Origin: an uncultured Holophagales bacterium
GTDB taxonomy: Bacteria > Acidobacteriota > Thermoanaerobaculia > Multivoradales > UBA5704
Assembly (NCBI GenBank): GCA_963842525.1
Contig: CAWJGT010000019.1
Coordinates: 448,001-512,000 of the forward strand
Direction of reading: 5' to 3'
DNA: 64,000 nucleotides
Below are positions 875 through 61,676 of the stretch, in pieces (the first letter of the stretch is position 1; each line of letters opens with the position of its first letter). The notes beneath the pieces were generated by a model. That model was not told where the DNA came from. It did no database searches and saw only the letters and a list, made by a program, of their open reading frames with translations. A program made the position numbers and the translations under genes.

Positions 875-17741
<16,867 letters not shown>

Positions 17742-45200: not shown

Positions 45201-45669
45201 GCCCGAGCACATGGTGCCGGCGGTCGTTGTGCTGCTGGATGCCCTGCCGCTCACCCCGAACGGCAAGATCGACCGCCGGGCCCTGCCCGAGCCGCCCGCC
45301 GCCCAGGCCGCCGGCGCCGGCGGGCACGTCCCGCCGCGGACCGCGGTCGAGGAGGAGCTGGCCCGCATCTGGGCCGGGCTGCTGGCGCTGCCGTTCGACC
45401 GCGTGGGGGTGAACGACAACTTCTTCGACCTGGGCGGTCATTCGCTGCTGGCCACCCAGTGCGTCGCCCAGGTGCGGGAGCGCCTGGGTGCGGAGATCCA
45501 GCTCCAGAGCCTGTTCGGCAATGCGACTCTTGGTGAAATCGCCGACGCCATCGTCGAGGCCGAGCTGCGGCAGGTGGACCAGGACTCGCTGCGCGAGATA
45601 CTCGCCGACTTCCAGGGGCTGGACGAGGAGGCGCTGCAGGCCCTGCTGGCGGGAGAGGAGCCGCGTTGA
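39250..45669 (+). CDS. Hybrid PKS-NRPS gene 7: KS-AT-ACP-C-A(Leu-like?)-T
   Basis: ATGA overlap. KS VQTGCSS / EGHGSGT / IGHCDT; AT GYSLG and HAFH; no reductive domains; ACP GGHS; C HHIISDG; A code about DAMFFGHVV; T GGHS. Confidence 0.93.
44186..44246. repeat. Family-1 half element just before the A3 motif (gene 7)
   Basis: TTCCCCCCTCTCCCGGTGGATCGGGAGTGCGGATGGGAGAGGGGGGCCAGGGGGGTGA; matches the right arm at about 60170-60222. Confidence 0.88.
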
Positions 45670-48600
45670 GCGAACGGCCGGGACCCGCAGTCGCCATCGA
45701 GGAGGCGCTCGCCGGGCTCTCGCGGGAGGAGAAGGCCCTGCTCTTCGAACGGCTGCGCAAGCGGGAGAAGCCCGGCGGGCGGGACTCCGCGATCCCGCGC
45801 CGCCGGCCGGGCGTGGGGCCCCTTCCTCTCTCCTTCGCGCAGGAGCGCCTCTGGTTCCTCGACCGGCTGCAGCCCGGCGACCTCTACAACGTTCCCTACG
45901 CGCTCTCGATCCGCGGCAACCTGGAGCCGGCCGCGCTGGCCGCCGCTCTCGGCGGGGTCGTGCGGCGCCACGAGGTGCTGCGCACCACCTTCGGCGAGCG
46001 CGACGGCCAGCCGGTGCAGGTCATTGCCCCGCCCGGCCCCTGGCGGCTGCCGCTCGTCGACCTCGCCGGGCTCCCCGCGGCGCAGCTCGACGAGGAGCTG
46101 GCACGGCTCGCGGCCTGGGAGGCGCGGCGGCCGTTCGACCTCGCGGCCGGCCCCCTGCTGCGCACCACTCTTGTGCGTACCGCCGCGGCCGAGCACACGC
46201 TGCTGCTCGTCCTGCACCACATCGTCGCCGACGCCTGGTCCATGACGGTGCTGGTGCACGAGACCGCGGAGCTGTACCGCGCCGCGTCAATGGGGCAGGC
46301 CCCGATGCTTCCCGAGCTGCCGATCCAGTACGCGGACTTCGCGCTCTGGCAGCGCTCCTGGCTGCAGGGAGAGGTGCTGGAGCGCCAGTTGGCGTATTGG
46401 CGGAGCCGCCTCGCGGACGCCCCGGCGGCGCTCGACCTGCCCTTCGACCGGCCGCGGCCGGCCGTGCCGAGCTTCCGCGGCGCCGCGCGGACGATCGCCC
46501 TGCCGCCCGCCCTTGCGGCCGGCCTGCGCCAGCTCGCGCGGGACGAGCGCCTGACCCTGTTCATGGCCCTGCTCGCGCCGCTCCAGGGCCTGCTCGCGCG
46601 GCTCGCTGGCGTCGACGACGTCGTGGTCGGCACGACCGTGACCGGCCGCGACCGCCGCGAGCTCCAGGGGCTGATCGGCTTCTTCATCAACACGCTGGCC
46701 CTGCGCACCGACCTCTCCGGAGACCCGGACGGCCGCGAGCTGCTGGGCCGGGCGCGCCAGACCACCCTGGACGCGTTCAGCCATCAGGACCTGCCGTTCG
46801 AGAAGGTGGTCGGCGAGCTGAGCCTGCCGCGCGATCCCTACCGGCCGCCGCTGCTCCGGGTGCTTCTGCAGCTCCTGGCCCATCCCGAGGGCGGCCTGGA
46901 CATCCCCGGGCTGACGCTCGCGCCCCACGGCCTCGACCGCGAGACGGTCAAGCTCGACCTGATCCTGAACGTCCACGACTACCCGGGCGGCGTGCTGACG
47001 GAGTGGCTCTACGACACCGACCTGTTCGACGCCTCCACGGTGGCACGCCTGGCCGGCAGCTTCCTCACCCTGCTCGAAGGCTGGGTCGAGGACCCCGCGC
47101 GACGGCTCTCCGACCTGCCGCTGCTGACCGCGGCACAACGCCACCAGCTTCTCGTGGAATGGAACCCGGGTCCGGCAGGGGAGCCCGCCTGGGGTTGCCG
47201 GGGCTGCCTGCACCGGCTCTTCGCCCACCAGGCGGAGCGGACGCCGGATGCGCCGGCCGTCTCGATGGGAGGTGGACGGAGGACGTACCGGGAGCTGGAC
47301 GAGTCCTCCAACCGCCTCGCCCGGCACCTGCTCGCCGCCGGGATGCGGCCGGGCGATCGTGTCGCCCTTTTCCTCGACCGCTCGCTGGACATGGTGGAGG
47401 CGATCATGGCCGTCCTCAAGGCGGGCGCCGCCTACCTGCCGCTCGATCCGGCCTACCCTCGCGAGCGGATCGCCTTCGCCCTGGAGGACAGCGGAGCCGC
47501 GCTCGTCCTCACCGTCGCGGCGCGCTCCCCGGAGTTGCCGGAGATCCCAGAAAACACCGCGCGGGTGCTCGTCCTCGACCGCGAGCGCGACGCCATCGCC
47601 CACCGCAGCAGCGGGCCGGTCGAGGCCGCGGCCGATCCGGAGCTGCCGGCCTACGTCATCTACACCTCCGGCTCGACCGGCCGCCCCAAGGGGGTGGTGG
47701 TGCCGCACGGCAACGTCACCCGGCTCTTCACCGCCACCGCGCCCTGGTTCGGCTTCGGCCCGCAGGACGTTTGGACCCTCTTCCACTCCTATGCCTTCGA
47801 CTTCTCGGTCTGGGAGATCTGGGGGGCGCTCCTCCATGGCGGCCGGCTGGTCGTGGTGCCGTACTGGGAGAGCCGCGCGCCCGAGGCCTTCTACAAGCTG
47901 CTGCGCGATGAGCGGGTGACGGTGCTGAATCAAACGCCATCGGCTTTCCGGCAGCTTTTGTGGGCGGAGGAGGCGGTGGGACCTCACCCCCTGTCCCCCT
48001 CTCCCATCTCCCACCCACCCTATCCCCGGGAGAGGGGGGACGTTGCTCAGGCGATTCCAGCGAGCCCGGGCACGGGTGCCCTGGATGCGTCCCCCCTCTC
48101 CCGGCGGGGGGTGGAAGGGAGATGGGAGAAGGGGCTAGGGGGTGAGGACACGCTCTCTCTGCGCTTCGTGATCTTCGGCGGCGAGGCGCTGGAGCCGGCG
48201 ATGCTCCGGCCCTGGTTCGACCGCCATGGCGACGAACGGCCACGGTTGGTCAATATGTACGGCATCACCGAGACCACGGTCCACGTCACGTACCGGCCGC
48301 TCGGGCGGGAGGACAGGAGGAGCGTCGTGGGCCGGCCGATCCCCGACCTGACGCTCCACGTGCTCGACCGCAGCCTCCAGCCGCAGCCGCTCGGGGTGGC
48401 AGGGGAGATCTGCGTCGGCGGGGAAGGGCTCGCCCACGGCTACCTGGGGCGGCCGGCGCTGGCCGCCGAGCGCTTCGTCCCCGATCCCTTCGGGGTTCTC
48501 CGGGGCGAAGCGGGCGCGCGGCTCTACCGTTCGGGCGACCTGGCGCGGCGACTGGTGGACGGCGACCTGGAATACCTGGGCCGCGTCGACCACCAGGTCA

Positions 48601-51600
48601 AGATCCGCGGCTTCCGCATCGAGCTGGGGGAGATCGAGGCGGCGCTGACGCGCCATCCGGCCGTGGGCGAGGCCGTGGTCCTGGCGCGCCGGGATGCCGG
48701 CCACGGCGAGGATCGCCTGGTGGCCTACGTGACCGCCGGGCCGCAGCCCTCTCCCGCCCTGCCGGAGCTGCGGGCCTTCCTCGCCGGGAGCCTCCCCGAC
48801 TACATGCTCCCCGCGGCCCTGGTGGTCCTCGACCGCCTGCCGCTGACGGCCAACGGCAAGGTCGACCGCCGTGCCCTGCCCGCTCCGGAGGCCGTGTCCA
48901 CGGCCAGTCGCGAGCAGGTGCCGCCGCGCGACGCGTTGGGGCACGCCCTGGCCGGTCTCGTCCGCGAGGTCCTGGCGATCCCGGCCGAGCAGGAGACCGG
49001 CGTTTTCGACGACTTCTTCGAGCTGGGCGGGACATCGATCACAGGTGCCATCTTCATCAACCGGCTCCAGGAGACGTTGGAGGAGATCGTCCAGGTGGTG
49101 GTGATCTTCGACTATCCCACGGTCGATGCCCTGGCCGGCTATGTCCGGCACGAGCACCCGAAGGCCGTGGCGCGGCTCTGGCCTGCGGCTCTGGAGCCGG
49201 TCGACGAGACGAAGCCGGCCCGGTTCCGTGGCCTCGTCCGCCCCGTCGCCCATATCGCCGAGGATTGGTCCGCCATCCAGCCGGCGGGCTGGCGCGAGGG
49301 CGAGCCCATCCCCCTGTCGTCCGCCCAGGAGAGGCTGTGGTTCCTCGACCGGCTCGCCCCCGGCTCGCCGGTCTACAACATCTCTACCCCCCTGCGGCTG
49401 AGCGGGCCCTTGCGAGTCCCGGCCGTGGCCGCGAGCTTGCGCGAGATCCTGCGCCGTCACATGGCATTGCGCACGCGCTTCGTGGCGCTCGGCGGCGTGC
49501 CGCACCAGGTCGTGGACCCCGTTCCGGAAGACGTCCTCCCGGTGGTCGACCTCGCGGGGCTGCCGGAACCGCTCCGCGAGGGCGAGGCCCAGCGTCTCGC
49601 GGCGGCCGACGCGGTCCGGCCGTTCGATCTGGCGCGCGGGCCGATGCTACGCACCCTCCTGCTGCGGCTCGGCCCAGAGGAACACGTCTCCCTTGTGGCA
49701 ATGCACCACATCGCCTCGGACGGCTGGTCCATGGGCGTGTTGATCCGCGAGCTGGCGGTTCTCTATGGCGCGTTGGCGCAGGGCCGGCCTTCGTCCCTGC
49801 CGGAGCCGGCCATCCAGTACGCCGACTTCGCCGTCTGGCAGCGGCGGTGGCTCCAGGGCGAACGGCTGGAGCGCGAGATCGCCTACTGGCGGGAGGCGCT
49901 GGCCGGCGCGCCGGTGCTCGACCTGCCGGTCGACCGGCCGCGACCGCCGGTGCAGACCTTCCGCGGCGCCCAGTTGGGATTCCACGTGCCGGCCGAGGTG
50001 GCCGCCGCGTTCGCCGCGGCCGGCCGGAGGGAGCGGGCGAGCCTGTTCATGACGCTGCTGGCGGGCTTCGCCGTTCTCCTCTCCCGGTACGCGGGCCAGG
50101 ACGACGTCTCCGTGGGCTCGCCGGTCGCCAACCGCACGCGGAGCGAGATCGAGGGGCTGATCGGGTTCTTCGTCAACACCCTGGTGCTGCGCACGGACCT
50201 CTCCGGCGATCCCTCGTTCGGCGAGCTCCTGGGCCGGGTGCAGCGTACGGCGGTGGGGGCCTTCGCCCACCAGGAGGTGCCCTTCGAGAAGATCGTGGAG
50301 GAGCTGCAACCGAAGCGCGACCTGTCGCGCTCGCCGCTCTTCCAGGTGATGCTCACGCTCCAGAACGCCTCGTCCGAGAAGCTGGAGCTGCCGGACCTGA
50401 CCCTGAGCCCTCTCGAGGGCGGCGGGACCACGGTGGCGAAGTTCGACCTGACGCTCGCCCTCTTCGAGGCACCGGACGGCCTGGCCGGGAGCTTCGAATA
50501 CAACACCGACCTCTTCGACGCCGCGACGATCGGCCGGCTCGCACGGTGCTTCCAAACGCTGCTGGCCGCGGCCGCGGTGTCGCCGGAGCCGGTTTCGGAG
50601 CTGCCGCTGCTGAGCGATGCGGAACGGCGCCAGCTCCTGGAGCGGGGCAGGGCGGAATCGTCCGGAGGCATCGTCTGCCTCCACGAACGCTTTGCGCAGC
50701 AGGCGCGGGAGGCGCCGGCGGCCCCGGCGATCACCTTCGCGGGTGCGACCCTGAGCTATGCCGAGCTGAATCGGCGGGCGAACCGGCTGGCTCATGCGCT
50801 ACGTGCGCGCGGGATCGGCCCCGGCGACCTCGTGGGCCTCTCCCTGGAGCGCTCGCTCGACCTGGTGGTCGCGATCCTGGGCGTGCTCAAGTCCGGAGCT
50901 GCCTATGTGCCGATCGATCCGGACTCCCCGGCCGAAAGGACCGCCTGGATCCTGGCCGACAGCCGGGTCGCGCTGCTGCTGACCGACAGCACGTTGGCCG
51001 AGGCGGATAAGACTGCTGATCGGGACGACGACCAGGTGCCGTGGTCCGCTCCGGAGGATCCGGCCTACGTCATCTACACCTCGGGCTCGACCGGGAAGCC
51101 CAAGGGCGTCGTGGTCACCCACGCCAACGTGGCGCGCCTGTTCGCATCGACCGAGGGCTGGTTCGGCTTTGGTCCTGAGGATGTCTGGACGCTGTTCCAC
51201 TCCACGGCCTTCGACTTCTCGGTCTGGGAGATCTGGGGCGCTCTGCTCTACGGCGGGCGCCTGGTGGTGGTGCCGTACTGGGTCAGCCGTTCGCCGCAGG
51301 ACTTCTACCGCCTGCTGGTGACGGAGCGGGTGACGGTGCTCAACCAGACGCCGTCGGCCTTCCGCCAGCTCCTCTGGGCGGAGGAGTCGGTGCTCGACGG
51401 CGGCCCCCCCGACCTGGCTTTGCGCTGCGTCATCTTCGGCGGCGAGGCCCTGGAGCTGTCGAGCCTGGCCCCCTGGTTCGCCCGCCATGGAGACCACCGT
51501 CCCGAGCTGGTCAACATGTACGGCATCACCGAGACCACGGTCCACGTCACCTGGCGTCCGCTGCGGCAGGAAGACACGGCACGAGGAAGCGTCGTGGGCC

Positions 51601-54600
51601 GGCCGATCCCGGACCTGGCGCTGCACGTCCTGGATCCCAAGCTGGAGCCCCAGCCGCTCGGGGTGCCAGGGGAGATCTGCGTCGGCGGCGGAGGGCTCGC
51701 CCTGGGCTACCTGAACCGGCCGGACCTGACGGCGGAGCGCTTCGTCCCCGATCCCTTCGGGTCTCCTGGAACGCGCCTGTACCGCTCGGGCGACCTGGCG
51801 CGGCGGCTGACGGATGATTTGGAATACCTGGGGCGCATCGACCAGCAGGTCAAGATCCGCGGCTTCCGCATCGAGCTGGGCGAGATCGAGGCGGCGCTGT
51901 CGAGCCATCCCGCTGTACGCGAGGCGGTCGTGGTCGCCCGTGAAGGGCAGCTCGTCGCCTACGTGGTGGCCGCTCCCGATCAGGAGGAGCCCACGCTCGA
52001 AGATCTGCGGTCGGCGCTTACAGCCCATCTGCCGGACTACATGCTGCCCTCGGCGTTCGTGCTGCTGCCGGCCCTGCCGCTGACCGCCCATGGCAAGGTG
52101 GACCGGCGGGCCCTGCCGGAGCCGGAGTGGAGACCGGCGCAACGGCAGTCGGTCGCGCCGCGCACGGACCTCGAAAGGCTGGTGGCCCACCTGTTCGCGG
52201 AGACGCTGGGGCTCGACCGGGTGGGAGTGCACGAGGACTTCTTCGAGCTCGGCGGCAGCTCGATCACCGGTGCCATCCTGATCAACCGGCTCCAGGAGGC
52301 GACCGGCGAGGCCATTCCGGTGGTGGCGATCTTCGAGACGCCGACCGTCGCCGGCCTGGCCGAGCGCCTGTCTCCCTCCGCGGTGCGCCTTGGCGATCAG
52401 GCGCCGCCGCTCGTCCCGGTGCCGCGTGAGCGCGACCTTCCGCTCTCCTTCGCCCAGCAGCGGCTCTGGTTCCTCGACCGGATGGAACCGGGGAGCCCGG
52501 CCTACAACCTGCCCAACGCCGTGCGCATCCGCGGCCGGCTCGACGTGCCGGCGCTCGGCCGCACGCTCCAGGAGTTGGTGCGTCGCCACGAGACGCTACG
52601 CACCTCCTTCGCGCTGCGTAATCGCCAGCCGGTGCAGGTCATTGCGCCGGATGTCCTGGCGGGGGTTTTCGCTCTGCCGGTCGTCGACCTGGCCGCGCTC
52701 CCGGAGGAGGCCCGCGAAGCCGCACTGCCCGCCGAAGCCGCGGCCGAGGCGCTCCGGCCGTTCGACCTGAGCCGGGCACCGCTGCTGCGCGCCACGCTGC
52801 TGCGGCTGGGGGATGACGACCACGCCCTGCTCCTCACCATGCACCACATCGTCTCGGACGCCTGGTCGATGGGGGTCCTCGTCACCGAGGTGACGCGGCT
52901 CTACGGCGCCTTCGTCCGTGGCGAGCCCTCGCCGCTCCCCGCGCTGCCGGTCCAGTACGCGGATTTCGCGGTCTGGCAGCGCCAGTGGCTCCAGGGCGAC
53001 GTGCTGGCGGCCCAGCTTGCGTACTGGCGGCAGCAGCTCGCCGGCGCGCCGGTGCTCCAGCTCCCCACTGACCGGCCGCGTCCCGCGGTGCAGACCTGGC
53101 GCGGCGCCGATTTCTCCTTCCTGTTGCCGGCTCCCCTCATCCAGTCGCTGACCGCTCTCGGTCATCGGCACGGGCGCCACCGGGCCACGCTGTTCATGAC
53201 GCTCCTGGCGGGCGCCCAGCTCCTGCTCTCCCGGTACAGCGGCCAGGACGACGTCACCGTGGGCTCGACGATCGCCAACCGTACGCGGCCCGAGCTGGAG
53301 GGCCTGATCGGGTTCTTCGTCAATACGCTTGCCCTGCGGCTGGATTTGACGGGGGACCCGTCGTTCGCGGACCTCCTGGACCGGGCGCGGGAGGTGACCG
53401 TCGGCGCCTATGCCCACCAGGACCTGCCGTTCGAGCAGCTCGTGGCCGAGATCCAGCCGGAACGGGACCTCGGACGCTCGCCGCTCTTCCAGGTCCTCGT
53501 CCAGCTCCAGAACACCCCGGCCGGCACCGCGGAGCCGGCGCCCGGCCTGGTCCTGGAGCCTGTCCAGAAGCCGGGCCAGACCGCGAAGTTCGACCTGGTC
53601 CTGAACCTGGCCGAGACCGCCGAGGGCCTCTGGGGCCAGTGGAAGTACAACCGCGACCTGTTCGAGGAGGCGACGATCGCCCGCCTGTCGAGCGATCTGG
53701 AGACCCTGCTCGCCGCGGTGGCGGCGGAGCCGGAGCGCCGGATCGCGGAGCTGCCGCTGCTGCATGGCGAGGAACGGCGCCAGCTCCTGCCGCAGGCACC
53801 GGCCGCCCCGGTGGCCGCCTTCACGGGTGCGACCCTGGGCTACGCCGAGCTGGTCGAGCCGCGCAACGAGGTCGAGCGGTTCGTGGCCGGCCTCTTCGCC
53901 GAGGCCCTGGGGCTCGACCGGGTGGGAGTCCACGAGGACTTCTTCGCGCTCGGTGGCAATTCGATCACCGGCGCCATCCTGATCAACCAGCTCCAGGAGA
54001 CCCTCGGAGAGATCGTCCAGGTGGTGGTGATCTTCGACGCCCCGACAGTCGCCGAGCTGGCCGACTACCTGGCGCGCGAGCATCCGCAGGCGGCGGAACG
54101 GCTCTGGGGCCTGGCCGCCGTGGAGCAACGAGGAGCCGGGCGGGTCGGCGATGCGCAGATCGCGGCGCTCCGGGCGCTGTTGGGTGGCGGCGCCCCTCTC
54201 CCGCTCGGGGTGGGGGATGGTGGACGCGCGGGGGAGGGGTCGGGGGAGGGGGCCCTCTTCGTCCTGGCGCCGCCGCGCTCGGGCACCACACTCCTCCGCG
54301 TCATGCTCGGCGGCCATCCGGCTCTCTTCGCGCCGCCGGAGCTGGAGCTCCTGTCCTTCAACACCCTGGCCGAGCGCCGGGCCGCCTTCCCGGGCCGCGA
54401 CAGCTTCTGGCTGGAGGGGCTCGTCCGGGCCGTTATGGAGATCCGCGGCTGCGGCGCCGAGGAGGCCGCGGCCCTGATGGAGGACCTGGAACGGGAGGGG
54501 CTGACGACCGCCGAGCTCTACGGCCGGCTCCAGTCCTGGCTCGGCGGGCGGATGCTGGTGGACAAGACGCCGTCCTACGCCCTGGATCCCGCGGTCCTGC

Positions 54601-57600
54601 GACGGGCCGAGGAGGTCTTCGACGGGCCGCGCTACATCCATCTGATGCGCCACCCGCTCGGCATGATCCACTCGTTCGAGGAGGCCAAGCTCGACCAGAT
54701 CTTCTTCCGCTACGAGCACTCGTTCTCCCGCCGCGAGCTGGCCGAGCTGATCTGGACGGTGAGCCACCAGAACATCGTCGATCTCCTCCAGGACGTGCCT
54801 GCCGAGCGGCAGCACTGGGTCCACTTCGAGGAGCTGGTGCGCGAGCCGGAGCGCGTGCTGCGCGGGATCTGCGCCTTCCTGGGGATCGACTACCACCCCG
54901 CCATGGCGCAGCCCTACGAGGAAGGCTCCGCGCGGATGACCGACGGCCTGCACGCCGCGTCCCGGATGCTCGGCGACGTCAAGTTTCACCAGCACCAGGG
55001 CGTCGACGCCCGCGCCGCCGAGCGCTGGCGGGAGGAGCTCGGCGAGGAGGCCCTGGGCGAGCCGTCGCGGCAGATGGCGGCGCGGCTCGGGTATTCCCTG
55101 GAGACAGGCGGGAAGGAGCTGGGGCAGATCGCGTCCTCCGGCTGGCACGAGGGCGCTCCGCTCTCCTTCGCCCAGGAGCGGCTCTGGTTCCTCAGCCGGC
55201 TGGACCCCGATTCCGCGACCTACAACATCGCCGCCGCCCTGCGCCTCCGCGGCCGGCTCGACACGCCGGCCCTGGAGGGGGCTCTGCGGCAGATCCTGCG
55301 GCGCCATGCCGTGCTGCGGACGACCTTCGACGCCGTGGACGGCCGCGCGCGCCAGAACGTCGGACCCGTGGAGGGGTTGGACCTGCCGCTCGTCGATCTC
55401 TCCGCCCTGCCGGCCGCCCTGCGCGAGCCCGAGCTGCGGCGCCTGATCGACGAGGCGGCCCAGCTCTCCTTCGATCTGGAGCGCGACCTCCTGCTCCGTC
55501 CGCTCCTCCTGCGCCTGGGCCAGGACGAGCACGGCGCCGTCCTGGTGATGCACCACATCGCCGCGGACGGCTGGTCCATGGGTGTGCTGATCCGCGAGCT
55601 GGCCGCTCTCTACAGGGCTTTCACCCAGGGCCAGCCGTCGCCGCTGCCGGACCTGCCGATCCAGTATGCGGACTTCGCGCGCTGGCAGCGCGAGTGGTTG
55701 AAGGATGAGCGGCTCGACCGCGAGCTCGCCTTCTGGCGCGACGCGCTCGCCGAGGCGCCCGTTCTCCAGCTCCCCACCGACCGGCCGCGGCCCCCGGTGC
55801 AGACCTTCCGTGGAGGCAGGCGTTTCCTCCTGATGCCGGCACGGATCGGCGAGCCTCTGACCGCCGTGGGCCAAGGGGAGGGCGCGAGCCAGTTCATGAC
55901 TCTGCTGGCGGGCTTCGCCGCCCTCCTCGCCCGCTACGCCGGGCAGGATGACGTCTCGATCGGCACGCCCATCGCCGGCCGCACCCGGGCTGAAATTGAA
56001 GGGCTGATCGGGTTCTTCGTCAACACGTTGGTCCTGCGCACGGACCTGTCCGGTGATCCGCCGTTCCGCACCCTCCTCAGACGGGTACGGAGCGCCGCGG
56101 TCGCGGCCTTCGCCCACCAGGACCTCCCGTTCGAGAAGGTGGTCGAGGAGCTGCAGCCGGAGCGGGACCTGTCGCGCACGCCCCTCTTCCAGGTGATGTT
56201 CACCCTGCAGAACGCCCATTCCGAGACCCTGAAGCTGCCAGGGCTGACCCTGGAGCCCCTCGGCGCCGACACCGGGGCGGCCAAGTTCGACCTGACGCTG
56301 GCGATGGCCCAGGGTCCGGCGGGCCTCTTCGCAACGTTCGACTACAACCTCGACCTGTTCGACGGCCCGACGATCGACCGCATGGCCGAGCACCTCGCCA
56401 TGCTCCTGGAGGGAGTGGTCGCGGAGCCCGACCGCGCAGTCTCCGAGCTGCCGCTTCTGACCGCGGGCGAACAACACCAGCTCCTCGCCGAATGGCCGGG
56501 CACCGCTCCCGCGGGCTGTTCCGTCCCTGTCGATCAGCTCTTCCGCGAGCAGGCCGCGCGGACCCCGGGCGCCGTGGCGCTTCTGTTCGGCGACGAGCGG
56601 ATCACCTATGCCGAGCTGGACGAAAGGTCGGACCGGCTGGCCCGGGAGCTGGCGGCGGCCGGCGTGGGCCCCGAGGTCCGGGTCGCCGTCGCCCTGGAGC
56701 GCTCGCCCGCTCTGATTGAGGCGTTTTTCGGCGTGCTCAAGGCGGGCGGGGTGTACGTGCCGATCGATCCGTCCTATCCGGCGGAGCGGATCGAGTTGAT
56801 GCTGGAGGATTCCGGCGCGGCGGTGGTGCTGCGGGACCCTCACCCCCCTAGCCCCCCTCTCCCATCCGCACTCCCGATCCCCCTGGAGAGGGGGGAACAA
56901 AGCAGAAGCAGTCTTGAGCTAGAGAAGCTTTTCTCCCCTCTCCCGGGGGAAGGGAGTGCGGATGGGAGAGGGGCCGGGGGTGAGGGCCCCGCCTACGTCA
57001 TCTACACCTCCGGTTCCACCGGCCGACCCAAGGGCGTCGTCGCCCTCCACCGCGGCCTCGCGACCTTCAGCCTCGCTATGGCCGACGCACTGGGCCTCGG
57101 TCCCGGCGACCGCTTCCTGCAGTTCGCGTCGCCTTCCTTTGACGCCTCGGCCGTGCAGATCTTCCCAACGCTGCTGAGCGGGGCCACGCTCGTCCTTCAC
57201 CCCGATCCGACCGCGCTGTCTCCGGCCGAGCTGTTGGTCTTCTGCGCCGACCAGGGGGTGACCGTGCTCGACCTGCCGGGGGCTCTCTGGCGCCAGACGG
57301 TGCAGGAGATGGCGTCCGGCGCCGCGCCACATCCACCCGTCCGGGCCTGGTTGACGGGCGGCGAGAGCCTGTCCCTCGAAGCCCTGCGGCAGTGGGCCGG
57401 GACGGTGGACGGTGAGAGCCTGTTCCTCAGCTCCTACGGCCCTACCGAGGCCACGATCACCACGACCGTCTTCACCCTGCCCGCGCGGGAGGTCGCCTCC
57501 CTTCCTGCCTTCGGCGCTCCCGTGGGCCGGCCGCTCGGCGGTGCCGAGGTCTACCTGCTCGACGCGGCCCTGCAGCCGGTTCCGGCGGGCGTGGCGGGCG

Positions 57601-60600
57601 GCCTGTACATCGGGGGCTCCGGGCTCGCCCGCGGCTATCTCGACCGGCCCGAGCTGACCGCGGCGGCGTTCGTTCCCCACCCCCTGGCCGGTGGAGAGCC
57701 CGGAGCACGCCTCTACCGTACCGGCGACCTCGCGCGGTGGCGGCCGGACGGCTCGCTGGAGTTCCTCGGCCGGGCCGACCAGCAGGTCAAGATTCGCGGC
57801 TTCCGGGTGGAGCCGGGCGAGATCGAGGCGATCCTGGCGCGCCACCCCGCAGTCGCGGACGTCGCCGTCGGCGTGCACGAGGACCGGGGTGATCGCAACG
57901 ATCAGCGCCTGGTCGCCTGGGTGGTGCCCGCGGAAGCCGGGGATGCCCTCGTGCCGAAGCTGCGCGCGTTCCTCCGTGAGCGGCTGCCCGAGCACATGGT
58001 CCCCTCGGACTTCGTGCCCCTCGCCGCGATGCCGCTCACCCCGGGTGGCAAGGTGGACCGCCGCGCCCTGCCGGCGCCGGACCGCTCGCGGCCGGAGGAC
58101 GGCGCCGGCTTCGTTGCGCCGCGCGGTGCAGTGGAGGAGACCCTCGCCGCCGTCTGGTCCCGCCTGCTCGGGGTCGAGCGGGTGGGGGCGGACGACGACT
58201 TCTTCGAGCTGGGCGGCCATTCGCTCCTGGCCACCCAGCTCGTCTCGCGCCTCCGCGAGGTCTTCGGCGTCGAGCTCCCCCTGCGCCAGGTCTTCGAGGC
58301 GTCTCGCCTCGCCCGGCTGGCCGCGGTCGTCGAGGACGCCCGCCGCGACCAGCGGGGCATGGCGGTCCCGCCGCTCCAGCCTCTTCCCCGGACCGAGGAC
58401 GAGCCCCTGCCCCTCTCCTTCGCCCAGGAGCGCCTCTGGTTCCTCGATCAGCTCCAACCGGGGCGGCCGACCTACAACATGCCCACCGCCGTGCGGCTCG
58501 GCGGACCGCTGGACGCGATCGCCCTCGCCGCTGCTCTCGGCGAGGTCCGGCGGCGGCACGAGGCGCTGCGTACCCGCTTCCCGGTGCAGAGCGGTGCGCC
58601 GGCCCAGGTTATAGCTGAGCCCGACCCGTTCTCCCTGCCCCGGGTCGACCTCTCCCGGCTGGAGGGACCGGTCCGCGAGGCCGAGGCCACCCGCCTGGCC
58701 GTGGCAGAGTCCAGCCGGCCGTTCGACCTCGCCGCCGGACCGCTCCTGCGCGCCACCCTGGTGCGGCTGGCCGAGCGCGAGCACGTGCTCCTGATCACCC
58801 TGCACCACATCGTCTCGGACGGCTGGTCCATGGGTATCCTCATCGAGGAGCTGGGCCGGTCCTACCACGCCTTCGCAGCCGGTACCGGGCCTGACCTGCC
58901 CGCGCTGCCCGTCCAGTACGCCGACCATGCCCGCTGGCAACGCGGCTGGCTGCGCGGCGAGGCGCTCGCGGTCCAGCTCGGCTACTGGCGGGACAAGCTC
59001 GGCGGCGAGCCGGTATCCCTGGAGCTGCCTCTCGACCGGACCCGTCCGTCGGGTGACGTCTTCCGCGGCGCCCGGCAGACCGTCCATGTCCCTCTGGCCG
59101 CCCTGAAAGCCCTGGAGGCCCTCGGCCGGCGCGAGGAGGCCACCCCTTTCATGGCCCTGGTGGCCGCCTTCGAGGCGCTGCTCCACCGCGTCACCGGACA
59201 GACCGACATCTCGGTGGGCACGCCGATCGCCGGCCGCACCCGGAGCGAGACCGAAGGGCTGATCGGCCTGTTCCTCAACACCCTCGTCTTGCGGGACGAT
59301 TTGTCGAGAGATCCGACATTCCGCGAGCTGATCGGCCGTGTCCGGCGCACGGCCCTGGACGCCTACTCGCACCAGGACCTGCCGTTCGAGAAGATCGTCG
59401 AGGAGCTGCAACCGCAGCGCAGCTTCGGCCAGACGCCGTTCTTCCAGGCCATGTTCGTCCTGCAGAACACGCCGGCCGGCGCACTGGAGGCCGGGGAGCT
59501 GACCCTGGCGCCGGTCCCGGCCTATAACGAGACAGCGCGGTTCGATCTCACGATGTCCGTCTCCCAGACCCCCGCCGGCCTCTACGGCTGGCTGGAGCAC
59601 AAGCCCGACCTTCTCCACGCCACCACGGTCCAGCGCTGGATCGAGGGCTTCCGGCGCATTGTCGAAGCCGTCGCCGCCGATCCCGACCTGCGGCTCTCCG
59701 AGCTGCCCCTCCTGTCGGCCGCCGAACGCCATCAGGTCGTGAGCGAGTGGAACGATAGCGAAGCCCCAAGTCGGGACGTCTGTCTGCACGACCTGTTCGC
59801 GGAGCAGGTCGCGCGTACGCCTGGGGCCGTGGCCGTGATGGGCCTCGACGTGGATCTCACCTATGCGGAGCTGGCAGCCCGGGCGGAGGACCTGGCCGGC
59901 CGTCTGCGTGCCCAGGGCATCAGGCCCGGTGACCGGGTCGCGATCCTGATGCAGCCCTCGCCGGACCGTGTCGCGGCGGTGCTCGCCGTGCTTCAGGCCG
60001 GCGCGGCCTATGTCCCCCTGGACCCGGCCTATCCGCAGGAGCGGCTGGACTTCATGGTCCAGGATGCGGGTGCGTCGGTCGTGCTGACGGACCCTCACCC
60101 CCGGCCCCTCTCCCATCCGCACTCCCTCCCTCCGGGAGAGGGGAGGATTGCAGTGAGAAGGCTTCTTTCCTCCTCTCCCGGGGGATCGGGAGTGCGGATG
60201 GGAGAGGGGTCGGGGGTGAGGGCCTACGTCATCTACACCTCAGGCTCCACCGGCCAGCCCAAGGGCGTCATGATCGAGCACCGCCAGGCGGTCAACACGA
60301 TCCTCGACATCAACCGCCGCTTCGGAGTGGGGGAGCGGGACCGGGTCTTCGCCATCTCGGCCCTCTCCTTCGACCTGTCGGTCTGGGACCTCTTCGGCAC
60401 CCTGGCCGGCGGCGGCACGATCGTGCTGCCGCCGCCGCAGACCGAGGGGCCGGACCCGGCTGCCTGGGTGGAGCGGCTGGCGGCCTGCGGTGTCACGATC
60501 TGGAATTCGGCTCCACCTCTGCTGGAGATGCTGGTCGAGTCCGGAGCGCGGCTGCCGGCGACGTTGCGCCTGGCGATGCTCTCGGGCGACTGGATCCCGG

Positions 60601-61676
60601 TCTCGCTGCCGGGCCGCGTCCGCCGGCAGGTCCCAGAATGTCGTGTCATCAGCCTCGGCGGCGCCACCGAGGGCTCCATCTGGTCGATCCTCCATCCGGT
60701 CCAGGAGGAGGACGCGCGGCGACGGAGCATCCCCTACGGCCGGCCGATGGAGAACCAGCGCTTCCATGTCTTCGACGGTCGCGGCAGGCCGGTGCCCATC
60801 GGCGTGGTCGGCGAGCTGTGCATCGGGGGCGCCGGGGTGGCCGGCGGCTATCTCGGCCGGCGGGAGCTGACCGCCGAGCGCTTCGCCCCCGATCCGTTCG
60901 GAGAGCCGGGAACGCGCCTCTACCGCACGGGCGACCTCGGGCGCTTCCTGCCGGACGGTACGATCGAATTCCTCGGCCGCCTCGACCACCAGGTCAAGAT
61001 CCGCGGCTTCCGTGTAGAGCTGGGGGAGATCGAGACCGTGCTGGCGCAGCACCCCACGGTCCGCGAGGCGGTGGCCCTGGTGCGTGCCGAGGGTGCCTCG
61101 CCGGCCGCGGGCGGTGACCGCCGTCTGGTCGGGTATGTAGTGCCCCAGCAGGAGGCGGTTGTTGATCCTGCCGAGCTGCGCGCCTGGCTCGCGGTTCGGC
61201 TGCCCGAGTACATGGTGCCGCCGCAGATCGTCGTCCTCGACCGCCTGCCGGTGACCCCCAACGGCAAGCTCGACCGCGCCGCCCTGCCGGCTCCCGAGGC
61301 GCTGGCCCGCGAGGTGGTGCCGCCGCGCGATGCCGTCGAGGAGACGCTGGCCGGGATCTGGCGCCGCCTCCTCGGGGTGGAGGTGGTGAGCATCGACGAC
61401 AACTTCTTCGAGCTGGGCGGCCACTCGCTCCTGGCGACTCGCGTGCTGGCCGCGCTGCGCGAGGAGCTGGGTGTCGAGCTGCCCGTACGCGAGGTTTTCG
61501 ATCGACCGACCATCGCGGGCTTGGCCCTGGCCGTGGCCGAGCGCCGGGTCGAAGCCGTGCCCGAGGAGGATCTCGCCCACATGCTCGACGACCTCGACGG
61601 CCTGTCGGACGAAGAGATCGAGCGCCTGCTCGCCGAGCCGGAGGAGGCCACCATAGCCGGCGGAGAGCCTCCATGA
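45666..61676 (+). CDS. NRPS gene 8: C-A(Thr)-T-C-A(Thr)-T-C-[A deleted]-T-sulfotransferase-C-A(?)-T-C-A(Cys)-T
   Basis: TTG start overlaps the gene 7 stop. Two DFWNIGMVH codes (Thr/Dhb); T motifs GG(T/S/N)SITG; sulfotransferase motif PPRSGTTLLR; A code about DAVDLGSIT (unassigned); DLWNMSLIW with SLGGATE (Cys). Confidence 0.93.
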   Translation: MSERPGPAVAIEEALAGLSREEKALLFERLRKREKPGGRDSAIPRRRPGVGPLPLSFAQERLWFLDRLQPGDLYNVPYALSIRGNLEPAALAAALGGVVRRHEVLRTTFGERDGQPVQVIAPPGPWRLPLVDLAGLPAAQLDEELARLAAWEARRPFDLAAGPLLRTTLVRTAAAEHTLLLVLHHIVADAWSMTVLVHETAELYRAASMGQAPMLPELPIQYADFALWQRSWLQGEVLERQLAYWRSRLADAPAALDLPFDRPRPAVPSFRGAARTIALPPALAAGLRQLARDERLTLFMALLAPLQGLLARLAGVDDVVVGTTVTGRDRRELQGLIGFFINTLALRTDLSGDPDGRELLGRARQTTLDAFSHQDLPFEKVVGELSLPRDPYRPPLLRVLLQLLAHPEGGLDIPGLTLAPHGLDRETVKLDLILNVHDYPGGVLTEWLYDTDLFDASTVARLAGSFLTLLEGWVEDPARRLSDLPLLTAAQRHQLLVEWNPGPAGEPAWGCRGCLHRLFAHQAERTPDAPAVSMGGGRRTYRELDESSNRLARHLLAAGMRPGDRVALFLDRSLDMVEAIMAVLKAGAAYLPLDPAYPRERIAFALEDSGAALVLTVAARSPELPEIPENTARVLVLDRERDAIAHRSSGPVEAAADPELPAYVIYTSGSTGRPKGVVVPHGNVTRLFTATAPWFGFGPQDVWTLFHSYAFDFSVWEIWGALLHGGRLVVVPYWESRAPEAFYKLLRDERVTVLNQTPSAFRQLLWAEEAVGPHPLSPSPISHPPYPRERGDVAQAIPASPGTGALDASPLSRRGVEGRWEKGLGGEDTLSLRFVIFGGEALEPAMLRPWFDRHGDERPRLVNMYGITETTVHVTYRPLGREDRRSVVGRPIPDLTLHVLDRSLQPQPLGVAGEICVGGEGLAHGYLGRPALAAERFVPDPFGVLRGEAGARLYRSGDLARRLVDGDLEYLGRVDHQVKIRGFRIELGEIEAALTRHPAVGEAVVLARRDAGHGEDRLVAYVTAGPQPSPALPELRAFLAGSLPDYMLPAALVVLDRLPLTANGKVDRRALPAPEAVSTASREQVPPRDALGHALAGLVREVLAIPAEQETGVFDDFFELGGTSITGAIFINRLQETLEEIVQVVVIFDYPTVDALAGYVRHEHPKAVARLWPAALEPVDETKPARFRGLVRPVAHIAEDWSAIQPAGWREGEPIPLSSAQERLWFLDRLAPGSPVYNISTPLRLSGPLRVPAVAASLREILRRHMALRTRFVALGGVPHQVVDPVPEDVLPVVDLAGLPEPLREGEAQRLAAADAVRPFDLARGPMLRTLLLRLGPEEHVSLVAMHHIASDGWSMGVLIRELAVLYGALAQGRPSSLPEPAIQYADFAVWQRRWLQGERLEREIAYWREALAGAPVLDLPVDRPRPPVQTFRGAQLGFHVPAEVAAAFAAAGRRERASLFMTLLAGFAVLLSRYAGQDDVSVGSPVANRTRSEIEGLIGFFVNTLVLRTDLSGDPSFGELLGRVQRTAVGAFAHQEVPFEKIVEELQPKRDLSRSPLFQVMLTLQNASSEKLELPDLTLSPLEGGGTTVAKFDLTLALFEAPDGLAGSFEYNTDLFDAATIGRLARCFQTLLAAAAVSPEPVSELPLLSDAERRQLLERGRAESSGGIVCLHERFAQQAREAPAAPAITFAGATLSYAELNRRANRLAHALRARGIGPGDLVGLSLERSLDLVVAILGVLKSGAAYVPIDPDSPAERTAWILADSRVALLLTDSTLAEADKTADRDDDQVPWSAPEDPAYVIYTSGSTGKPKGVVVTHANVARLFASTEGWFGFGPEDVWTLFHSTAFDFSVWEIWGALLYGGRLVVVPYWVSRSPQDFYRLLVTERVTVLNQTPSAFRQLLWAEESVLDGGPPDLALRCVIFGGEALELSSLAPWFARHGDHRPELVNMYGITETTVHVTWRPLRQEDTARGSVVGRPIPDLALHVLDPKLEPQPLGVPGEICVGGGGLALGYLNRPDLTAERFVPDPFGSPGTRLYRSGDLARRLTDDLEYLGRIDQQVKIRGFRIELGEIEAALSSHPAVREAVVVAREGQLVAYVVAAPDQEEPTLEDLRSALTAHLPDYMLPSAFVLLPALPLTAHGKVDRRALPEPEWRPAQRQSVAPRTDLERLVAHLFAETLGLDRVGVHEDFFELGGSSITGAILINRLQEATGEAIPVVAIFETPTVAGLAERLSPSAVRLGDQAPPLVPVPRERDLPLSFAQQRLWFLDRMEPGSPAYNLPNAVRIRGRLDVPALGRTLQELVRRHETLRTSFALRNRQPVQVIAPDVLAGVFALPVVDLAALPEEAREAALPAEAAAEALRPFDLSRAPLLRATLLRLGDDDHALLLTMHHIVSDAWSMGVLVTEVTRLYGAFVRGEPSPLPALPVQYADFAVWQRQWLQGDVLAAQLAYWRQQLAGAPVLQLPTDRPRPAVQTWRGADFSFLLPAPLIQSLTALGHRHGRHRATLFMTLLAGAQLLLSRYSGQDDVTVGSTIANRTRPELEGLIGFFVNTLALRLDLTGDPSFADLLDRAREVTVGAYAHQDLPFEQLVAEIQPERDLGRSPLFQVLVQLQNTPAGTAEPAPGLVLEPVQKPGQTAKFDLVLNLAETAEGLWGQWKYNRDLFEEATIARLSSDLETLLAAVAAEPERRIAELPLLHGEERRQLLPQAPAAPVAAFTGATLGYAELVEPRNEVERFVAGLFAEALGLDRVGVHEDFFALGGNSITGAILINQLQETLGEIVQVVVIFDAPTVAELADYLAREHPQAAERLWGLAAVEQRGAGRVGDAQIAALRALLGGGAPLPLGVGDGGRAGEGSGEGALFVLAPPRSGTTLLRVMLGGHPALFAPPELELLSFNTLAERRAAFPGRDSFWLEGLVRAVMEIRGCGAEEAAALMEDLEREGLTTAELYGRLQSWLGGRMLVDKTPSYALDPAVLRRAEEVFDGPRYIHLMRHPLGMIHSFEEAKLDQIFFRYEHSFSRRELAELIWTVSHQNIVDLLQDVPAERQHWVHFEELVREPERVLRGICAFLGIDYHPAMAQPYEEGSARMTDGLHAASRMLGDVKFHQHQGVDARAAERWREELGEEALGEPSRQMAARLGYSLETGGKELGQIASSGWHEGAPLSFAQERLWFLSRLDPDSATYNIAAALRLRGRLDTPALEGALRQILRRHAVLRTTFDAVDGRARQNVGPVEGLDLPLVDLSALPAALREPELRRLIDEAAQLSFDLERDLLLRPLLLRLGQDEHGAVLVMHHIAADGWSMGVLIRELAALYRAFTQGQPSPLPDLPIQYADFARWQREWLKDERLDRELAFWRDALAEAPVLQLPTDRPRPPVQTFRGGRRFLLMPARIGEPLTAVGQGEGASQFMTLLAGFAALLARYAGQDDVSIGTPIAGRTRAEIEGLIGFFVNTLVLRTDLSGDPPFRTLLRRVRSAAVAAFAHQDLPFEKVVEELQPERDLSRTPLFQVMFTLQNAHSETLKLPGLTLEPLGADTGAAKFDLTLAMAQGPAGLFATFDYNLDLFDGPTIDRMAEHLAMLLEGVVAEPDRAVSELPLLTAGEQHQLLAEWPGTAPAGCSVPVDQLFREQAARTPGAVALLFGDERITYAELDERSDRLARELAAAGVGPEVRVAVALERSPALIEAFFGVLKAGGVYVPIDPSYPAERIELMLEDSGAAVVLRDPHPPSPPLPSALPIPLERGEQSRSSLELEKLFSPLPGEGSADGRGAGGEGPAYVIYTSGSTGRPKGVVALHRGLATFSLAMADALGLGPGDRFLQFASPSFDASAVQIFPTLLSGATLVLHPDPTALSPAELLVFCADQGVTVLDLPGALWRQTVQEMASGAAPHPPVRAWLTGGESLSLEALRQWAGTVDGESLFLSSYGPTEATITTTVFTLPAREVASLPAFGAPVGRPLGGAEVYLLDAALQPVPAGVAGGLYIGGSGLARGYLDRPELTAAAFVPHPLAGGEPGARLYRTGDLARWRPDGSLEFLGRADQQVKIRGFRVEPGEIEAILARHPAVADVAVGVHEDRGDRNDQRLVAWVVPAEAGDALVPKLRAFLRERLPEHMVPSDFVPLAAMPLTPGGKVDRRALPAPDRSRPEDGAGFVAPRGAVEETLAAVWSRLLGVERVGADDDFFELGGHSLLATQLVSRLREVFGVELPLRQVFEASRLARLAAVVEDARRDQRGMAVPPLQPLPRTEDEPLPLSFAQERLWFLDQLQPGRPTYNMPTAVRLGGPLDAIALAAALGEVRRRHEALRTRFPVQSGAPAQVIAEPDPFSLPRVDLSRLEGPVREAEATRLAVAESSRPFDLAAGPLLRATLVRLAEREHVLLITLHHIVSDGWSMGILIEELGRSYHAFAAGTGPDLPALPVQYADHARWQRGWLRGEALAVQLGYWRDKLGGEPVSLELPLDRTRPSGDVFRGARQTVHVPLAALKALEALGRREEATPFMALVAAFEALLHRVTGQTDISVGTPIAGRTRSETEGLIGLFLNTLVLRDDLSRDPTFRELIGRVRRTALDAYSHQDLPFEKIVEELQPQRSFGQTPFFQAMFVLQNTPAGALEAGELTLAPVPAYNETARFDLTMSVSQTPAGLYGWLEHKPDLLHATTVQRWIEGFRRIVEAVAADPDLRLSELPLLSAAERHQVVSEWNDSEAPSRDVCLHDLFAEQVARTPGAVAVMGLDVDLTYAELAARAEDLAGRLRAQGIRPGDRVAILMQPSPDRVAAVLAVLQAGAAYVPLDPAYPQERLDFMVQDAGASVVLTDPHPRPLSHPHSLPPGEGRIAVRRLLSSSPGGSGVRMGEGSGVRAYVIYTSGSTGQPKGVMIEHRQAVNTILDINRRFGVGERDRVFAISALSFDLSVWDLFGTLAGGGTIVLPPPQTEGPDPAAWVERLAACGVTIWNSAPPLLEMLVESGARLPATLRLAMLSGDWIPVSLPGRVRRQVPECRVISLGGATEGSIWSILHPVQEEDARRRSIPYGRPMENQRFHVFDGRGRPVPIGVVGELCIGGAGVAGGYLGRRELTAERFAPDPFGEPGTRLYRTGDLGRFLPDGTIEFLGRLDHQVKIRGFRVELGEIETVLAQHPTVREAVALVRAEGASPAAGGDRRLVGYVVPQQEAVVDPAELRAWLAVRLPEYMVPPQIVVLDRLPVTPNGKLDRAALPAPEALAREVVPPRDAVEETLAGIWRRLLGVEVVSIDDNFFELGGHSLLATRVLAALREELGVELPVREVFDRPTIAGLALAVAERRVEAVPEEDLAHMLDDLDGLSDEEIERLLAEPEEATIAGGEPP
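47982..48147. repeat. Family-1 full element inside the first Thr A domain of gene 8
   Basis: CCTCACCCCCT..CCCCTCTCCCATCTCCC and GGGAGATGGGAGAAGGGG.TAGGGGGTGAGG; absent at the equivalent site of the paralogous Thr A domain (about 51380-51420). Confidence 0.9.
54189..54254. repeat. Family-1 variant half element immediately before the sulfotransferase
   Basis: GGCGCCCCTCTCCCGCTCGGGG..GGTGG..GCGCGGGGGAGGGGTCGGGGGAGGGGGCC; nearly identical to 63671-63736. Confidence 0.85.
54255..55100 (+). other. Embedded PAPS-dependent sulfotransferase domain (CurM/Ols-like)
   Basis: LFVLAPPRSGTTLLRVMLGGHP (5'-phosphosulfate-binding loop), LVDKTPSYA, YIHLMRHP, VHFEELVREPE, MTDGLH..S.MLGD. It lies between a T domain and a C domain. 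Confidence 0.9.
56837..56986. repeat. Family-1 full element occupying the A2-A3 segment (gene 8, module 4)
   Basis: CCCTCACCCCC..CCCCTCTCCCATCCGCACTCCC and GGGAGTGCGGATGGGAGAGGGGCCGGGGGTGAGGG. Confidence 0.9.
60092..60222. repeat. Family-1 full element occupying the A2-A3 segment (gene 8, Cys module)
   Basis: CCCTCACCCCCGGCCCCTCTCCCATCCGCACTCCC and GGGAGTGCGGATGGGAGAGGGGTCGGGGGTGAGGG; near-perfect arms of about 35 bp. Confidence 0.92.

Follow-up and report, generated by a model that had tools for sequence, protein, structure and literature searches.

Sulfotransferase (ST) domains built into assembly lines are known from several systems. In CurM, the olefin synthase OLS and the haliamide HlaB, the ST belongs to a terminal acyl carrier protein (ACP)-ST-thioesterase (TE) unit placed after a ketoreductase (KR), and the TE drives a decarboxylative elimination; for CurM and OLS this step is indeed assigned to the TE (PMC3903477, PMC6274090). 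At the opposite end of the line, the starter domain set FkbM-FkbH-T-ST-C (T, carrier; C, condensation domain) is known for DysB of dysinosin (PMC6520454), suomilide/varlaxin AerB (PMC10143770) and BslA (PMC13122637); glycerate 3-O-sulfate is retained in their products, from which, and not in vitro, the activity of these starter-module STs was deduced. Oci (oscillapeptin/cyanopeptolin 1138) also has S and GA domains (PMC2533009). As a stand-alone enzyme, SulN of sulfazecin carries out a sulfonation, dependent on 3'-phosphoadenosine-5'-phosphosulfate (PAPS), of a carrier-bound peptide side chain, the beta-amine of diaminopropionate (Dap) (PMC11298585). Here we analyse an ST located in an elongation module encoded by a nonribosomal peptide synthetase (NRPS) gene of an uncultured Holophagales bacterium, in a stretch of 64,000 nucleotides (contig CAWJGT010000019.1, positions 448,001 to 512,000) called below the window. 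Literature searches over open papers, subscription papers being beyond reach, turned up no work on STs within NRPS elongation modules.

The gene encodes C1-A1(Thr)-T1-C2-A2(Thr)-T2-C3-T3-ST-C4-A4(DAVDLGSIT)-T4-C5-A5(DLWNMSLIW)-T5, A being the adenylation domain (Table 1). The boundaries of C3, T3, ST and C4 were set with our own domain profiles, and in 53466-55265 Pfam recognises a C domain's C-terminal half, then PP-binding and Sulfotransfer_3, and after these C. The gap between C3 and T3 is only 39 amino acids (aa), therefore module 3 has no A domain. An earlier sequence-only reading had noticed an intact ST between T and C in an A-less module, preceded by two Thr modules and followed by a continuing chain without adjacent TE. 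All this is borne out: A1 and A2 bear the same code (positions set by GrsA numbering), and C-A-T-C-A-T, not a TE, comes after the ST. This code appears among Thr-activating domains in PMC12283262. The interval given by the earlier reading, 53853..55200, starts at the T3 linker and not at the ST, and was otherwise right. It knew this type of ST as terminal ACP-ST-TE, an incomplete picture given the T-ST-C starter modules (PMC6520454, PMC10143770, PMC13122637, PMC2533009).

The ST matches Sulfotransfer_3 (PF13469, E 9.8e-27), the ST of CurM over residues 1-280 (4GBM, E 3.2e-66) and that of OLS (4GOX, E 2.5e-60). The AlphaFold model of T-ST, based on an alignment of 88 rows (mean predicted local distance difference test, pLDDT, 89.4; a single-sequence model with pLDDT 36 was dropped), is aligned by Foldseek to 4GBM with a template modelling (TM) score, for the target, of 0.91. 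The motifs PPRSGTT, PPELE, DKTPSY and RHP..S are all intact; R2871, E2892, K2967, R2995 and S3003 (numbering in the NRPS protein) align with CurM, and the R, E, K, R and S of these PAPS/catalytic motifs recur in 210-212 of the family's 212 distinct STs. The roles of these residues are presumed from CurM Arg39, Glu60 and Lys133. PPELE is found in 205/212 family STs, CurM and OLS showing PPELH, with His for Glu. Hidden Markov model and structural comparison with the CurM ST, proposed by the earlier reading as a check, thus gives a match without loss of catalytic or PAPS-binding residues; judging from sequence and model, the ST is a member of the PAPS-dependent CurM/OLS-like fold family.

Which residue would be sulfated is suggested by the relatives. 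Seven NRPS-embedded STs occur in the genome; the other six are A-T-ST-C, behind Thr-type (3), Ser (2) and DIWEITADD (1) codes. ST matches were obtained in 25/40 related genomes, in 22/24 of the same family, with up to 10 copies each. For most of these matches, though not for every one, the surrounding sequence was fetched; the 80 regions so obtained hold 92 ST matches, namely 90 A-T-ST, one frameshift duplicate and one cut. Among complete codes before an ST, 78/86 are of hydroxyl or Dap type (Thr 39, Ser 25, Tyr 7, Dap-type 4, homoserine (Hse) 3), against 52/261 complete codes in the host genome as a whole and 17/60 A domains after an ST; these counts span kin genomes that are not independent, so that the significance of the enrichment is overstated. 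The Tyr reading of DAS/ATV/IAAVC and the Dap reading of DIWEITADD are our assumption. Those of Thr, Ser and Hse rest on PMC12283262. Two further sets, partly overlapping with the former, were drawn. A protein search (targets of 1018-2905 aa, 8000 candidates scored) gave 1038 matches, the best 120 of which, with the own protein, contain 126 STs: what follows is C (79), a TE-like tail (36, a motif-based guess), the end (10) or T (1), and two places upstream stands A (109), C (1, the own case) or ST (1), 15 being cut off. Among 45 GTDB loci, 25 show a readable A before T-ST: Thr/Ser 19, aliphatic-type 4 (all Chloroflexota), other 2.

A quick tree was built with 177 of the 212 distinct STs, the 35 without readable code being left out. 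The label of the A domain changes at least 29 times on this tree, thus the A-ST pairing has been remade many times, and yet it stays mostly Thr, Ser, Tyr, Hse or Dap. The own ST groups with 12 STs of Thr modules (SH-aLRT 93). Of the 177 distinct STs whose upstream domain can be read, it alone lies in a C-T-ST module that has lost its A; one more ST without an A in front stands in ST-T-ST. The nearest named relatives among the matches listed are Thermoanaerobaculia/Acidobacteriota proteins. In a phylum-wide sample, close STs (1e-60) were found in 2/150 other genomes, therefore the family is patchy and not phylum-wide.

From this the following course may be proposed. The ST would be an in-cis, PAPS-dependent O-sulfotransferase acting on the side-chain hydroxyl of the residue held by the preceding carrier. 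T3 would now receive its Thr from the adjacent A2 (or from A1), both Thr-specific; C3 would add this Thr, the ST would sulfate its beta-hydroxyl and C4 would forward the chain, giving ...Thr-Thr-Thr(O-SO3-)... within a fatty-acyl-started peptide-polyketide.

The sulfate might also activate the Thr hydroxyl for elimination to dehydrobutyrine, by a CurM-like logic without decarboxylation. Among solved structures the activating STs of CurM and OLS come closest, a beta-sulfate beside a thioester can eliminate by general chemistry, and Ser/Thr predominate in the family. However, the eliminating domain of CurM and OLS is the TE (PMC3903477, PMC6274090), and there is none here. C4 ranks with LCL structures (Txo2, E 1e-107). 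AmbE (7R9X, E 1e-18) and McyA (8JBR, E 9e-21), which we take to be dehydrating C domains, match it about 90 orders of magnitude more weakly; with LCL domains as its best matches, C4 does not fall into the dehydrating (modAA-type) clade. A specialised clade was sought among 75 post-ST C domains and none was found: they have standard motifs and just three weakly distinctive columns. ST-bearing modules with a Tyr code (13, a reading that we assume) or a Hse code (3) also exist, for which beta-elimination is impossible, and the starter-module relatives retain a beta-sulfate. Elimination thus appears very unlikely, contrary to the second branch of the earlier proposal. Its first branch, on-line O-sulfation of Thr, gains from the intact motifs, the family-wide pairing with hydroxyl residues and the sulfate-retaining starter relatives: by sequence and analogy a retained sulfate is the better reading, and the ST family as a whole probably makes retained sulfates.

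Those starter modules are the closest parallel. The earlier reading had recommended a search for the T-ST-C architecture; the GTDB scan brought up four cyanobacterial loci that have T-ST-C but lack an A domain upstream of it (ST 55-57.5% identical). Two of them were annotated: Anabaena sp. 4-3 and Hormoscilla sp. GM7CHS1pb encode FkbM-FkbH-T-ST-C-A-T-C(E), with 50% identity to the own protein over T-ST and 55-56% over ST, the same carrier signature and the PPELEL motif. As in DysB, AerB, BslA and OciA, the ST would work in cis, flanked by a carrier and a C domain, on a beta-hydroxy thioester, and the chain goes on. The carrier-bound glyceryl-S-T corresponds to seryl-S-T as its hydroxy analogue, and the glycerate 3-O position equals the Ser/Thr hydroxyl. 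Unlike these loading modules with FkbH-loaded glycerate, ours is an elongation module behind Thr modules, and the FkbH and O-methyltransferase loading domains present in the two cyanobacteria are absent before T3. CurM, OLS and HlaB share with our ST the fold, 39-40% identity, the PAPS motifs and a carrier-bound beta-hydroxy thioester as target, but differ by their terminal ACP-ST-TE after KR and their TE-driven elimination; no ketosynthase-acyltransferase-KR module precedes the ST here, where C-A(Thr)-T and C-T stand instead. SulN, for its part, is stand-alone, acts in trans, is an N- and not an O-sulfonating enzyme and is followed by a beta-lactam-forming TE.

The lack of an A domain seems secondary. 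Between C3 and T3 lies a 59-nt remnant (E 2e-12 against the start of A2), to which T3 adjoins directly and in frame; with a score of 72, the 20-aa linker fits the start of A2 better than that of any other of the 293 A domains compared, and 0/200 shuffles attain this value. T3 matches T2 from 53852 onward (81.7% DNA identity over 213 nt). Set against module 2, the sequence lacks about 65-70 nt and, further on, about 1380 nt, with the frame kept, and C3 most resembles (72%) those C domains of paralogs that stand before A(Thr)-T-ST modules. The A2-like remnant and the kinship of C3 thus indicate that module 3 was once C-A(Thr)-T-ST: as read from these scars, it descends from C-A(Thr)-T-ST-C, whose A domain was lost in frame. 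Such a loss beside another Thr-specific A domain, which makes it redundant, would be an easy path.

Table 1. Features of the NRPS gene and of its A-less ST module (positions in the window)
Feature	Position	Strand	Description
NRPS gene	45666..61676	+	single open frame, 5336 aa
A1	47208..48857	+	code DFWNIGMVH, Thr
T1	48930..49148	+	ST-partner-type carrier (GGTSITGA...EIVQVVVIFD), no ST after
ST-deletion scar	49143..49310	+	pre-ST linker fused to post-ST linker
A2	50679..52094	+	code DFWNIGMVH, Thr; likely loader of T3 (inferred)
T2	52164..52373	+	first half ST-partner-type; T-C linker ordinary
C3 of A-less module	52440..53750	+	HHIVSDA motif
A-domain remnant, 59 nt, A1-motif region	53794..53852	+	84.7% identity to A2 50710-50768
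T3	53865..54074	+	ST-partner-type carrier, serine kept (GGNS)
Palindromic repeat copy in T-ST linker	54186..54255	+	short, in frame, in place of usual KNPP stretch
ST	54255..55094	+	PAPS-type sulfotransferase, CurM/OLS fold
C4	55158..56447	+	LCL-type condensation domain, HHIAADG

Could the A domain be missing from the assembly only, the true gene being a canonical C-A(Thr)-T-ST-C? Frameshifts are many in this assembly, and a 151-nt piece from one run fits 53686-53796 with one difference while its remaining 40 letters diverge past 53796, a weak hint that a close strain may differ beyond this point. But 15% of the remnant's positions disagree with A2, hence it is no collapse onto A2, and two separate gaps, frame kept in both, resemble scars found elsewhere in the genome; an assembly error would be very improbable, the least expected of the explanations. 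No reads bridging the C3-T3 junction were found in four public runs (the run search showed shares of only 0.05-0.06).

The earlier reading saw in the A-less C-T a tailoring station. In such a scheme C3-T3 adds nothing: either T3 takes over the chain or the ST acts directly at T2 or T1, and an upstream Thr is sulfated and keeps its sulfate. T1 and T2 both retain the ST-partner signature, and Chloroflexota loci suggest that an ST may serve a residue outside its own module. However, the signature is accounted for by descent from T-ST modules, C3 is of the normal amide-forming type without special changes, and C-T-ST occurs in 0/90 readable STs of relatives. With its deletion scar, its uniqueness (1/177) and C-A-T-ST-C as the family norm, the module does not look designed for this, and the scheme is distinctly unlikely.

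Descent of T1 from a T-ST module is supported by the opposite loss shown by module 1, where about 306 aa, the ST, are gone compared with a paralog at C19:264692 (C19 being the contig of the cluster), and C2 finds its closest counterparts (72%) among post-ST C domains. T1 scores 92.8 for the ST-partner signature; 12/332 carriers of the genome score above 50, the next best reaching 12.1. Seven of these 12 precede an ST and five do not. Another such carrier, near aa 5680 of the C19 frame 242323-266616, bears an ST-deletion scar and follows an A domain with the code DAWTVAAVC, presumably Phe-like; if so, the loss of its ST went along with a change to a residue that bears no hydroxyl.

Does the module still work? 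It might be a non-working relic of the A3 loss, skipped or blocking the line, in a cluster perhaps decaying and without sulfated product. The ST-loss scar of module 1, the A-loss scars of module 3 and near 7637, two frameshifts in the window, the missing release domain and the integrase/transposase genes downstream would agree with this. On the other hand, C3, T3 and the ST are free of decay: C3 deviates at 1/81 conserved columns where the median is 3, thus it has not decayed, and the carrier serine of T3 is present. Both deletions are in frame; partial domains are widespread in the assembly (99 partial versus 266 full C matches), which points to sequencing indels; and A-less short C-T units occur six times in the genome, and also in relatives. 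A relic is unlikely, less so than the assembly error or the tailoring station. A-less modules loaded by another module's A domain are known, as in capreomycin CmnI and ferricrocin SidC (PMC12400406, PMC10192304), and trans loading occurs in himastatin and WS9326A (PMC9943842). Like them module 3 has a C-T without its own A, here with the Thr-specific A2 next to it; unlike them its loading is only deduced, and the scar of the lost A is still visible.

Retained O-sulfation of a carrier-bound Thr, on a T3 loaded by a neighbouring Thr-specific A domain, is our best explanation of the whole, and by sequence we would give it just short of an even chance; that this copy works through shared T3 loading is a weaker step than retention across the family. 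Several observations, besides the kinship behind the code counts, weigh against it. Cluster decay or assembly noise could be read in the ST loss of module 1, the A-deletion scar at ~7637, the frameshifts and the absence of TE or reductase (R) domain. The cluster ends one C-A-T gene further on without TE or R domain, before unrelated and integrase/transposase genes. Codes are unassignable before 22/177 STs of the tree set, and only 3/18 Thr and 2/15 Ser modules of the host genome carry an ST. As 6/25 GTDB loci have other codes, the own-module hydroxyl is, by these predicted codes, not always the target. Lastly, the two cyanobacterial loci are tied to a sulfated product by their domain order, not by the products of those strains.

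More generally, T-ST may be a portable unit of elongation modules, acquired and lost by recombination, that installs a retained sulfate on Thr, Ser, Tyr or Hse and possibly on the Dap amine, with consequences for the lineage and the locus; we regard this as possible, somewhat below even. If true, a soil Acidobacteriota family (22/24 sampled genomes) would produce O-sulfated lipopeptides of a large class not yet described, and the locus would show how a redundant Thr-specific A domain is discarded and the sulfating module works on via its neighbour's. Reports of sulfo-Ser and sulfo-Thr are rare, and mass spectrometry easily loses them (PMC13514629). Should A-T-ST-C work as proposed, it would offer a programmable sulfation step for NRPS engineering and predict many sulfated peptides of soil Acidobacteriota, traceable by the carrier signature; the T-ST didomain, of 434 aa, is a directly testable unit. 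Less interest attaches to the A-less arrangement as such, which records module evolution (A loss, ST loss) and is not a new design.

Some members of the family are worth mentioning. In the Chloroflexota loci L118, L120, L121 and L125 an aliphatic-type A precedes T-ST, and Asp replaces the second Glu of PPELE; judging from these codes, the ST must be idle or act elsewhere. P0060, P0115 and L073 have a terminal A(DIWEITADD)-T-ST with a TE-like tail: if DIWEITADD means Dap, as we assume, they would follow in cis the SulN/SulM monobactam logic. A plasmid of a cultured Agrobacterium vitis strain (NZ_AP023281.1, L159:18042-21689) carries a stand-alone A-T-ST-TE gene (ST 48.6% identical) adjoining cysD, cysN and ectB. 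A clade of 12 single-module C-A(DGxxxGE code)-T-ST proteins with TE-like tail comprises P0085, P0087, P0088, P0090, P0096, P0100, P0101, P0104, P0107, P0110, P0117 and P0119.

The whole window (about 73% guanine plus cytosine) is one hybrid NRPS-polyketide synthase (PKS) cluster on the + strand, from 875 to past 64000, in a genome of 9.95 Mb with 34 contigs and 232 megasynthase frames. An AMP-ligase and a carrier (FAAL-ACP type) open the assembly line, therefore a fatty-acyl start of the product is likely. An adenosine 5'-phosphosulfate kinase gene (656-aa frame) lies outside the cluster, on contig C24. The frameshifts, at ~16900 and ~26200, split an A domain and a C domain, and may be sequencing errors in view of the partial C matches counted above. 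The first gene has a second A-less C-T module (6305-7930), with a remnant of the C-terminal motif of an A domain near 7637. In relatives, A-less C-T units lie directly upstream of C-A(Ser)-T-ST at L058, L060, L086 and L117, which suggests that such units are tolerated in the lineage.

The next NRPS genes start ~16 kb beyond the cluster and continue into contig C18, C19:526001-534190 overlapping C18:37201-45380 with 99.7% identity over 8.2 kb. This second NRPS-PKS cluster has a paralog of the 3' half of the gene analysed here; the paralogous gene on C18 matches 55158-60091 with 79% identity and shows Thr-T-C, with no ST, its carrier being one of the five mentioned above that bear the ST-partner signature but precede no ST. 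We take the terminal domain on C18 to be reductase-like from its sequence. In-frame palindromic repeats add Pro/Gly-rich stretches to A domains and linkers, at 47978-48150, 56833-56990 and 60089-60224 besides the copy in the T-ST linker, which has 77 merged copies across the genome. Further copies lie at 1943-2099, 13039-13096, 44186-44248 and 63564-63736, and one palindromic repeat has 456 merged matches genome-wide, 61 of them within megasynthase frames.

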